NCBI GenBank assembly: GCA_947626035.1
Contig: CANQQR010000001.1
Span: 13,096 to 77,095 of the forward strand
Direction: 5' to 3'
Source of the DNA: an uncultured Bacilli bacterium
GTDB taxonomy: Bacteria; Bacillota_I; Bacilli_A; RF39; UBA660
DNA: 64,000 nt
This document shows, in pieces, positions 35,732 through 36,411 of this stretch. Under the pieces are notes generated by a model, which was not told the origin of the DNA, ran no database searches, and saw only the letters and a list, made by a program, of their open reading frames with translations. Every line of letters starts with the position of its first letter. Position 1 is the stretch's first letter. Both the position numbers and the translations under genes were made by a program.

Positions 35732-35902
35732 ATTTATTCCTCCAATTTTATTTTTATATTATAATATAAAAATGAGTAAAAGGAGTTAATAAAGTTTGAC
35801 CAAGATTAATTTATTGCAGTGGTTGGCGGCCACTACAGGCGTTTCCGCAACCAGGACCAGATCCTTATAGGTTCCGGCGGTCAGGCCGGCTCCATTCTGG
35901 AT

Positions 35903-36055
35903 CTATACCTCTTTCAGGTTCTCCTGCGTGAACTTATCCCAGGTCCCCACCATTGCCACACGGTCAGCTGACTTTACCTGCAGCGCGCCCATGGAAGCGC
36001 CGGCTTCCAGCTCAATGACCGTCCCATCTTTTAAGATCATTTTATCTTTGTTCAT
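35903..36055 (-). pseudogene. GC-rich gene fragment with in-frame stop (foreign/host-derived remnant)
   Basis: The ~350-bp segment 35780-36140 is much more GC-rich (~55%) than the flanks; a 50-aa ORF with RBS is followed in the same frame, after a TAG, by further plausible coding sequence (IQNGAGLTAGTYKDLVLVAETPVVAANHC). Confidence 0.4.
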
Positions 36056-36411
36056 CTTTTTCTCCTTTCTATGCCCCTTTGGGGCTGGTTTACATGTGAC
36101 ATTTTGCAGGTCGATATTTCGTTTTTAGGCCGCTAAACAGCGATTTGGGAAATTTTGCGACAAATTACAATCCGTCAAGCATAGTAAAACTTACTCAATT
36201 ATGGTTGGTCGCAGGCGTCCATACACCCACCGGGGAATCTGGCATATGCCTGGCTTATAAATATGATGCTAGCCTCAGTCCCCGTCTTGTTACGCTAGGT
36301 AATTCAGAAAATATGCGTGCTGCCACAAACAATGGTGGGACGGTTCAATGGCAATACAAAAATAGTGCCATAGACGTTCAAACTGCGGGAATAAAGTTAT
36401 ATTAATGCGAT

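Follow-up and report, generated by a model that had tools for sequence, protein, structure and literature searches.

A gene remnant, probably from a temperate Lachnospiraceae phage, at the distal repeat of a putative two-cassette tail-fibre inversion switch

The present study concerns a GC-rich island beside the tail-fibre gene of a phage, which lies in a 64,000-nt stretch of contig CANQQR010000001.1, hereafter called the window. An initial annotation of the window, made from the sequence alone, had described the island (35780-36140) as a recently captured and decaying piece of a higher-GC gene in the tail-fibre module. We propose, with a probability of about 0.72, that the island is a truncated gene remnant from a temperate Lachnospiraceae phage and that it stands at the distal repeat of a two-cassette inversion switch of the fibre gene. 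The features involved are listed below with their positions in the window; L005 is a related phage locus, and RBS denotes a ribosome-binding site.

35786..35821, minus strand: non-homologous AT-rich tail in the same frame as the remnant, reading HCNKLILVKLY and then TAA; the alignment to homologues is lost here
35822..36055, minus strand: pseudogene, codons 1-78 of a ~129-aa family, with ATG at 36055-36053; homology ends after ...VVAAN
36056..36124, minus strand: probable imported 5' leader of the remnant, with RBS AAGGAG (36062-36067) and hairpin GCCCCAAAGGGGC (36073-36085), collinear with L005
36125..36141, no strand assigned: distal arm (B), TTAGGCCGCTAAACAGC, the proposed recombination site, at the very end of the stretch homologous to L005
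36142..36405, plus strand: alternative C-terminus of the fibre, silent and inverted, 87 aa (DLGNFATNY...AGIKLY; stop codon 36403-36405), which continues from arm B in the same phase (..PLNS/DLGNF..)
36412..36732, minus strand: expressed C-terminal fibre cassette, 106 aa, KTTGKITMADGW...HGIHITS and a stop, with no sequence relation to the silent cassette
36733..36749, no strand assigned: proximal arm (A), encoding ..(I)STLNS, the constant/variable junction inside the fibre gene
36750..37644, minus strand: constant N-terminal part, residues 1-298 of the 410-aa tail fibre (whole gene 36412-37644)

The 50-aa minus-strand ORF (open reading frame) of the initial annotation is indeed present at 36055..35903, with AAGGAG six bases 5' of its ATG, and beyond the TAG (35903-35905) the same frame is open again as IQNGAGLTAGTYKDLVLVAETPVVAAN..., as had been described. 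When this frame is read through the TAG it gives an 89-aa product, and a protein search with this query returned 138 homologues, nearly all of them ~129 aa in length and 63-74% identical, with E values down to 2.8e-27. These homologues come from prophages in Enterocloster, Clostridium symbiosum and Lachnoclostridium genomes and from human-gut metagenomes. The TAG (35905-35903, codon 51) stands where all the homologues carry Gln (EVQIQNG), and Q50 is nearly invariant in an alignment of 38 family members; in the same alignment the invariant residues S69 and S72 are replaced by A and P in the window copy. Similarity is lost past residue 78, and the last ~50 residues of the family are absent. The stop at codon 51, the end of homology at codon 78 and the altered S69 and S72 together identify this as a pseudogene copy and not a working member of the family, and the TAG itself is a C-to-T mutation of a Gln codon rather than a recoded one.

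At the DNA level, the remnant (54.3% GC) matches L005 with 76% identity over 35825-36142, which comprises the 78 codons and an 87-nt leader with the RBS and hairpin. The dN/dS of the remnant against both L005 and L002 is 0.12, which indicates that the divergence was mostly built up under selection and that the stop and the truncation are recent. In the prophages L002-L004 the gene is intact and lies directly 3' of the tail-fibre gene, followed by a 37-aa gene, a holin and an amidase. The initial view, of a fragment captured from a higher-GC gene of another phage and now decaying, is therefore borne out by the protein identity, the TAG at a Gln position and the dN/dS value, and these data support the reading that the island is a recently imported, decaying pseudogene, probably from a temperate Lachnospiraceae phage. 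The L005 counterpart of the hairpin (L005 ~2870-2895), located between the fibre and 129-aa genes, is followed by TTTTT and is terminator-like; in the window this T-run after the hairpin is deleted.

The composition of the island was assessed against a mean GC of 38.1% (SD 5.7) for the window. The GC fraction of 0.555 at 35800-35999 (200-nt window), against 0.26-0.365 in the left flank (35400-35799), confirms that an island exists, whereas the ~55% previously given for 35780-36140 describes only its peak, as the value measured over that interval is 48.8%. The block with homologues (35822-36142) has 51.7% GC (z = 2.4), which places it in the top 0.7% of 321-nt windows, but an equal level is reached at six further places in the window, among them 34060-34477 and the tRNA region. 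The contrast is sharper at the codon level than in bulk GC: GC at third codon positions (GC3) is 0.67 in the remnant frame and, in the fibre gene next to it, 0.27 over the constant part. The neighbouring plus-strand ORF (36145-36405) has the TTG start and lacks a Shine-Dalgarno sequence, as noted at the outset; it had also been called compositionally atypical, which does not hold, since its GC of 42.5% and GC3 of 0.35 are ordinary. What the initial annotation missed is that this ORF is a silent alternative C-terminus of the fibre.

The left breakpoint of the imported block lies at ~35821/35822, and the DNA leftwards of it is the native, promoter-like upstream region of a 122-aa gene; from ~35812 leftwards this shares homology with the DNA upstream of the 410-aa fibre gene. 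On the other side, L005 carries CGCTGTTTA at the position of arm B, and 36142 is the precise end of its homology with the window. The proposal that such a remnant lies where receptor-binding modules are exchanged thus holds in a more precise form, the homology with L005 stopping exactly at the distal inverted repeat.

The arms 36125-36141 and 36733-36749 form a 17-nt inverted repeat, the top-ranked one of 36000-37700, in which 15/17 positions are complementary and an 11-nt core, CGCTAAACAGC, is exact. They bracket 591 nt (36142-36732), and the outer arm lies 70 nt upstream of the remnant ATG. When the two 40-nt windows were shuffled, an 11-nt exact inverted match arose in 1 of 20,000 shuffles (p ~5e-5). 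The two arms share one codon phase (..LNS). Counted from the L of LNS, the silent cassette can be read in this phase for 90 codons without a stop, compared with 0 and 41 codons in the two alternative phases. As a consequence of the shared phase and the open frame, a flip of 36142-36732 would attach the 87-aa tip, in frame, to fibre residues 1-304 (...STLNS); the native junctions are GTACGCTAAACAGCAAGACAAC and GGCCGCTAAACAGCGATTTGGG, and the recombinant junctions predicted after a flip are GTACGCTAAACAGCGATTTGGG and GGCCGCTAAACAGCAAGACAAC. A constant 5' part with a convergent in-phase 3' segment, and repeats that keep the frame, characterize fibre-gene inversions as a general class, and both are found here.

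In a search against 1.84 billion proteins, the silent tip matched the C-terminal end of P0183 (231 aa) with 37% identity over 67 aa (E = 2e-5), the remaining weak matches being translated repeat arrays; on the basis of the P0183 match, the silent tip is a real coding sequence. The N-terminal part of the fibre shows a weak match to PHROG 257, a minor tail protein, and its residues 22-118 are 47% identical with a protein of Roseburia phage Jekyll. Among GenBank phage records, this N-terminal part is the only portion of the fibre with matches, namely to Roseburia phage Jekyll and Faecalibacterium phage Roos. The x-N-S motif at the junction also occurs in P0125, P0126, P0129, the L002 and L005 fibres and P0161-P0177.

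The same layout, i.e. fibre gene, arm at x-N-S, convergent in-phase ORF, second arm, leader and 129-aa gene, is found in L002 and L005, whereas their repeat sequences and cassettes differ from those of the window. We examined 48 loci with the 129-aa gene (46 of 59 fetched from IMG/VR, together with L002 and L005) for an exact inverted repeat of at least 13 nt, requiring that the nearer arm lie 50-200 nt before the 129-aa gene and the second arm 0.2-1.2 kb upstream of the first. Such a repeat, of 13-20 nt, was present in 23 of the 48 loci, compared with 4 of 48 in a direct-repeat control. The silent frame was open in phase, for 39-214 codons, in 22 of the 32 loci analysed, and in 21 of these 22 both other phases closed within 13 codons.

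These data also show clearly that inversion happens in the relatives, as three near-identical contig pairs (L027/L029, L046/L050 and L060/L063) differ solely by an inverted segment. L027 and L029 are from one metagenome, and their flanks are collinear and 99.94% and 99.96% identical; the 636-nt segment between them is 100% identical but inverted at a 15-nt repeat, AAATAGTGATTTAGC, the outer arm of which lies 77 nt before the 129-aa gene. The segments of L046/L050 (794 nt) and L060/L063 (312 nt) are inverted in the same manner. The site is CGCTAAACAGC in the window and AAATAGTGATTTAGC, AAATAGCAA or AATAACAATTTGAG in the relatives. In temperate relatives the invertible segment has 32-41% GC against 47-58% in the adjacent 129-aa gene, the corresponding values in the window being 41.8% and 54.3%, which would agree with the import of a single block. 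Exchange of tips is seen in another form: in L009-L011, fibres of 139 aa and 201 aa have as their expressed tip the cassette that is silent in L002 (KFVENTNWDKKL...), and the tip that L002 expresses (NIPSITFTIRPG...) is silent and inverted in those loci. The flipped L002 fibre as such was not found, the search showing this A/B cassette swap in other fibres.

Not all members retain an open silent frame: L033-L042 and L064/L065 have the repeats, with silent frames that are short and closed. The AT-rich phages L006 and L008 have the STLNS protein motif without an inverted cassette, which indicates that this motif by itself is no sign of a switch. Across L055-L065 (IMG/VR, ~2580-3820), ten phages are 98% identical up to ...TTNNNLS and 91-97% identical from the outer arm on; between the arms they carry entirely different cassettes of 566-1205 nt, with a third site in L058. 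The repeats here enclose a tip region that is hypervariable. The exact cassette-B pattern had no match in IMG/VR or in GTDB genomes, and matched four metagenome contigs. In L012 (6130-6630) and L015 (425-930) the A/B cassette pair lies beside bacterial genes with no constant part of a fibre. A conserved 45-nt flank, GGGCAGCCTTATTGTAAGTGCGTATTTGATTTACTGAGC..., adjoins cassette A in the former and cassette B in the latter, an arrangement that may represent the end of a decayed prophage or a chimeric assembly across the repeat.

With respect to the enzyme, L009 and L010 carry a gene for a 331-aa XerD-like tyrosine recombinase right after the cassettes (L009 6074-7069). The L009 protein has a core-binding SAM-like domain and a catalytic domain, with no arm-binding domain (PF00589, 2.4e-32; NF040815, XerA-like, 225 bits), and homologues with 28-32% identity are present in L032, L025 and L041. 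In L032 (1888-3925) the recombinase gene (2527-3360) lies between the nested repeats AATAGCAATTTAAC (2147/3497) and TTAAATAGCGAC (1888/3914), so that this invertase gene is located within the invertible region and would itself flip. Other loci, L027/L029 included, have no recombinase within 4 kb, and as L027/L029 nevertheless invert, action in trans must be possible.

Based on these comparisons, we suggest the following history. Recombination with a temperate Lachnospiraceae phage would have brought the distal part of a fibre module into a low-GC (38%) phage, with a left breakpoint inside the 129-aa gene (~35822) that removed its last ~50 codons. A later C-to-T change would have converted the Gln-50 codon into TAG, leaving a 50-aa stub at most. 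The right end of the imported DNA would be, or would include, the inversion module, in which recombination between 36125-36141 and 36733-36749 is predicted to flip 36142-36732 and to replace the 106-aa tip by the 87-aa tip after ...STLNS. The remnant alone is an ordinary recombination scar and a passenger; the repeat arm at its end would be the part that matters. We infer that the remnant and the switch were probably imported as one block and that the switch may still be working in this phage; in favour of activity, the silent cassette is intact while the adjoining remnant has decayed.

The proposed switch may be compared with several known systems. The Gin, Cin and Min inversion systems rely on serine recombinases that act at 26-bp dyad sites, with Fis and an enhancer, and a chaperone gene (U/U') inverts together with the tips. 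In these systems, the G segment of Mu, the C segment of P1 and Min of p15B, a constant fibre part is spliced by inversion to one of two or more tips and the host range changes (PMC6109161, PMC9881135). The logic of the switch is the same, but a serine recombinase, dyad site, enhancer and co-inverted chaperone gene were not seen in the window: tblastn with Hin gave no match there, the Pfam scans contained no Resolvase family, and the window repeat as read from the sequence has no gix/hix-like dyad. In the R64 shufflon, the tyrosine recombinase Rci acts at short repeats conserved on one side and switches the adhesin-like C-terminus of pilV. That system differs in that its product is a conjugative pilus protein and not a phage fibre, and the sfx sequence is different.

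The closest counterpart is the Rin shufflon of Bifidobacterium prophages, in which a XerD-like tyrosine invertase acts at 11-bp rix sites on constant and variable parts of a receptor-binding protein (Mavrich et al. 2018; PMC6109161). Common to both are a constant N-terminal receptor-binding part, C-terminal cassettes in opposite orientation and short asymmetric crossover repeats, and the XerD-like recombinase without an arm-binding domain beside the cassettes has the same make-up in the relatives L009, L010 and L032. Rin differs in having Actinobacteria hosts, whereas the phages considered here are those of Firmicutes/Lachnospiraceae; in its site, rix being TTCCCTAACCC and the present site TAAAYAGY..., which encodes x-N-S; and in being a multi-cassette shufflon with an adjacent recombinase, where the window has two cassettes and no recombinase nearby. 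By analogy with Rin, the inversion enzyme is most likely a small XerD-like tyrosine recombinase. A second bifidophage locus, in tRNA-Met-integrated phages, inverts at an 8-bp repeat and is not flanked by a recombinase gene; the ~500 bp that flip comprise a small gene and its neighbour's 3' end, and an invertase acting in trans has been proposed for this locus (PMC6109161). The window resembles this locus in size (591 nt), in combining a 3' gene end with a small convergent ORF, in its very short repeat and in the lack of an adjacent recombinase; it differs in that the bifidophage genes are unrelated in sequence and lack a functional assignment, and in that both orientations were seen there and one for the window phage. 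By these analogies, the window locus would work like a Rin-type switch, the defining recombinase and both orientations being seen in relatives only. A limited search of the searchable literature found no description of a family of fibre-tip switches with an x-N-S junction.

Readings in which there is neither remnant nor switch were considered as well. That the island lies within normal compositional variance, and that the inverted repeat and plus-strand ORF are coincidental, is hardly credible. It is true that the same GC level recurs at the six other 321-nt places and that an 11-nt exact inverted repeat is not rare in 1.7 kb, another being present at 36263/37276, but the remnant has homologues with E values down to 1e-27, the repeat lies in phase at two predefined positions, and the layout recurs in dozens of loci in which inversions are directly seen. 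Also very improbable is programmed readthrough or TAG-to-Gln recoding (genetic code 15), which would make the 89-aa product a real protein. The TAG does fall exactly on a conserved Gln codon, and L001, a 905-nt contig of the same phage that corresponds to window 35304-36208 with 1 mismatch, has a gene call from a metagenome pipeline in which TAG is read as Q, yielding the protein P0001. However, the DNA of L001 has the TAG, so that the Gln of P0001 results from gene calling with another code. A tRNA-like gene at 30630-30701 has an abnormal 6-nt anticodon loop, CTAAGA, which might be taken for a suppressor, but none of the 17-18 tRNAs of the window has a CUA anticodon. In addition, TAG terminates 10 of 60 long ORFs (e.g. 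39169-39984, with the next start at 40000), coding density rises only from 0.68 to 0.72 with TAG as sense (0.75 for TGA and 0.85 for TAA), and the six structural genes beside the island are intact under code 11. The readthrough product would in any case still be without the last ~50 family residues and end in non-homologous AT-rich sequence. Recoding and a suppressor tRNA were accordingly rejected on stop-codon usage, coding density and tRNA anticodons.

Other observations speak against a switch that is active in this phage. The flipped form of the window fibre is not on record: the native orientation is found in the source contig and also in L001, of which only 66 nt fall within the segment, and a hybrid-protein search for the flipped fibre returned only the native protein, P0121. 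The flipped junction is absent from IMG/VR, where the native junction is absent too, so that this result is uninformative on the flip, and the 122-aa neighbour led only to a 2.5-kb contig that ends short of the repeat. The repeat is short, at 11 nt exact and 15/17 overall, and its arms differ (A vs G) right after AAACAGC, in a stretch where the two arms of the relatives agree. No tyrosine or serine recombinase was detected in the 64-kb window (ORFs of at least 100 aa, tblastn) or in the 10 kb upstream, i.e. to its left, which holds small genes; ~65 kb of a genome of probably 139.6 kb lie outside these 64 kb + 10 kb, and the protein at the right edge of the window is not on record. Furthermore, the link between recombinase and inversion is one of gene neighbourhood, and as neither cassette has a close DNA homologue, joint import with the remnant is deduced from position and GC pattern only.

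Such observations would suit a fossil switch, in which the remnant, distal repeat and silent cassette were all transferred, the segment no longer inverts and the plus-strand ORF is a dead cassette that has not yet acquired a stop. The missing recombinase, the decay of the neighbouring remnant, the imperfect arms with a mismatch beside the core and the single recorded orientation all agree with this, and the closed frames of L033-L042 and L064/L065 demonstrate that such switches do decay. We nevertheless regard a fossil as unlikely, albeit a serious contender, since the silent cassette is intact over 87 codons where the remnant already has a stop, L027/L029 invert with no recombinase in their vicinity, which makes action in trans possible, and nearly half of the probable genome was outside the region examined. 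Should the switch still invert, there would be a further, quite speculative and rather improbable scenario, in which a lytic-type phage keeps a working switch with no recombinase of its own and the XerD-like invertase of a resident temperate phage or of the host acts on it in trans. If this were true, the prophage content of the last host cell would set the host range of the phage, and the gene remnant would be the scar of taking the switch from such a temperate phage.

The ~129-aa family itself had no sequence match in Pfam, PHROG, NCBIfam or PDB, and neither the island nor the family had a DNA or protein match among GenBank phage records. An AlphaFold (AF2) model of the family (pLDDT 82.5) has a beta-domain (1-88) and a long C-terminal helix (91-125); it matches uncharacterised gut-phage proteins only (TM 0.88) and, weakly, Hcp/tail-tube folds (E 0.005 or worse). 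An Rfam scan of 35600-36900 revealed no structured RNA at E values up to 1. A template/variable repeat of a diversity-generating retroelement, a group I intron and a mobile mini-element were dropped as identities for the island once it had proved homologous to an ordinary protein-coding gene.

The genome of this phage is probably the 139.6-kb contig on which the fibre protein P0121 is encoded. The genes of the window include gyrase A and B, DnaB, ligase, RNase H and GIY-YIG and HNH homing endonucleases, and there is a tRNA array of 17-18 genes (20294-30701); this gene set is that of a large virulent-type (lytic-type) phage. The tRNA-like gene at 30630-30701 scored 48.6 bits with Rfam and was given a two-base anticodon by ARAGORN, and is no standard amber suppressor. 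Elsewhere in the fibre cluster, the 122-aa (35363-35731) and 410-aa (36412-37644) genes both start with MSRVYSS and have homologous ~90-nt upstream regions (35732-35812 and 37645-37730), and in the database protein P0122 (634 aa) the N-terminal part resembles the 410-aa protein and the C-terminal part the 122-aa protein. Together, P0122 and the shared starts and upstream regions indicate that module shuffling in the cluster exceeds the inversion switch.

The minus-strand region 32311-34740 includes a gene for a 253-aa protein whose last ~150 residues are dense in Cys-X3 repeats (CSGC, CGGC). Two genes downstream of it, on the same strand, is the gene for a radical SAM peptide maturase assigned to the CXXX-repeat-target family (TIGR04115; 432 bits, cut-off 350). 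Both genes are inside the tail-fibre module, and in the temperate relative L005 a radical SAM/SPASM gene likewise precedes the fibre gene by two genes. The Cys-X3 protein and its maturase could give rise to a cross-linked structural protein.

In conclusion, a low-GC phage with a lytic-type gene set and a genome of probably ~140 kb appears to have exchanged DNA with temperate Lachnospiraceae phages at its receptor-binding module. P0001, a protein that is not encoded under the standard code, serves as a caution for recoding screens. The remnant points to widespread in-frame inversion switches of the fibre tip in phages of human-gut Clostridia, a family marked by the x-N-S junction, by 10-20-nt repeats and, in some members, by a XerD-like recombinase. 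For annotation and host-range prediction, this would mean that short orphan ORFs convergent on fibre genes are to be read as alternative tips and not as separate genes.

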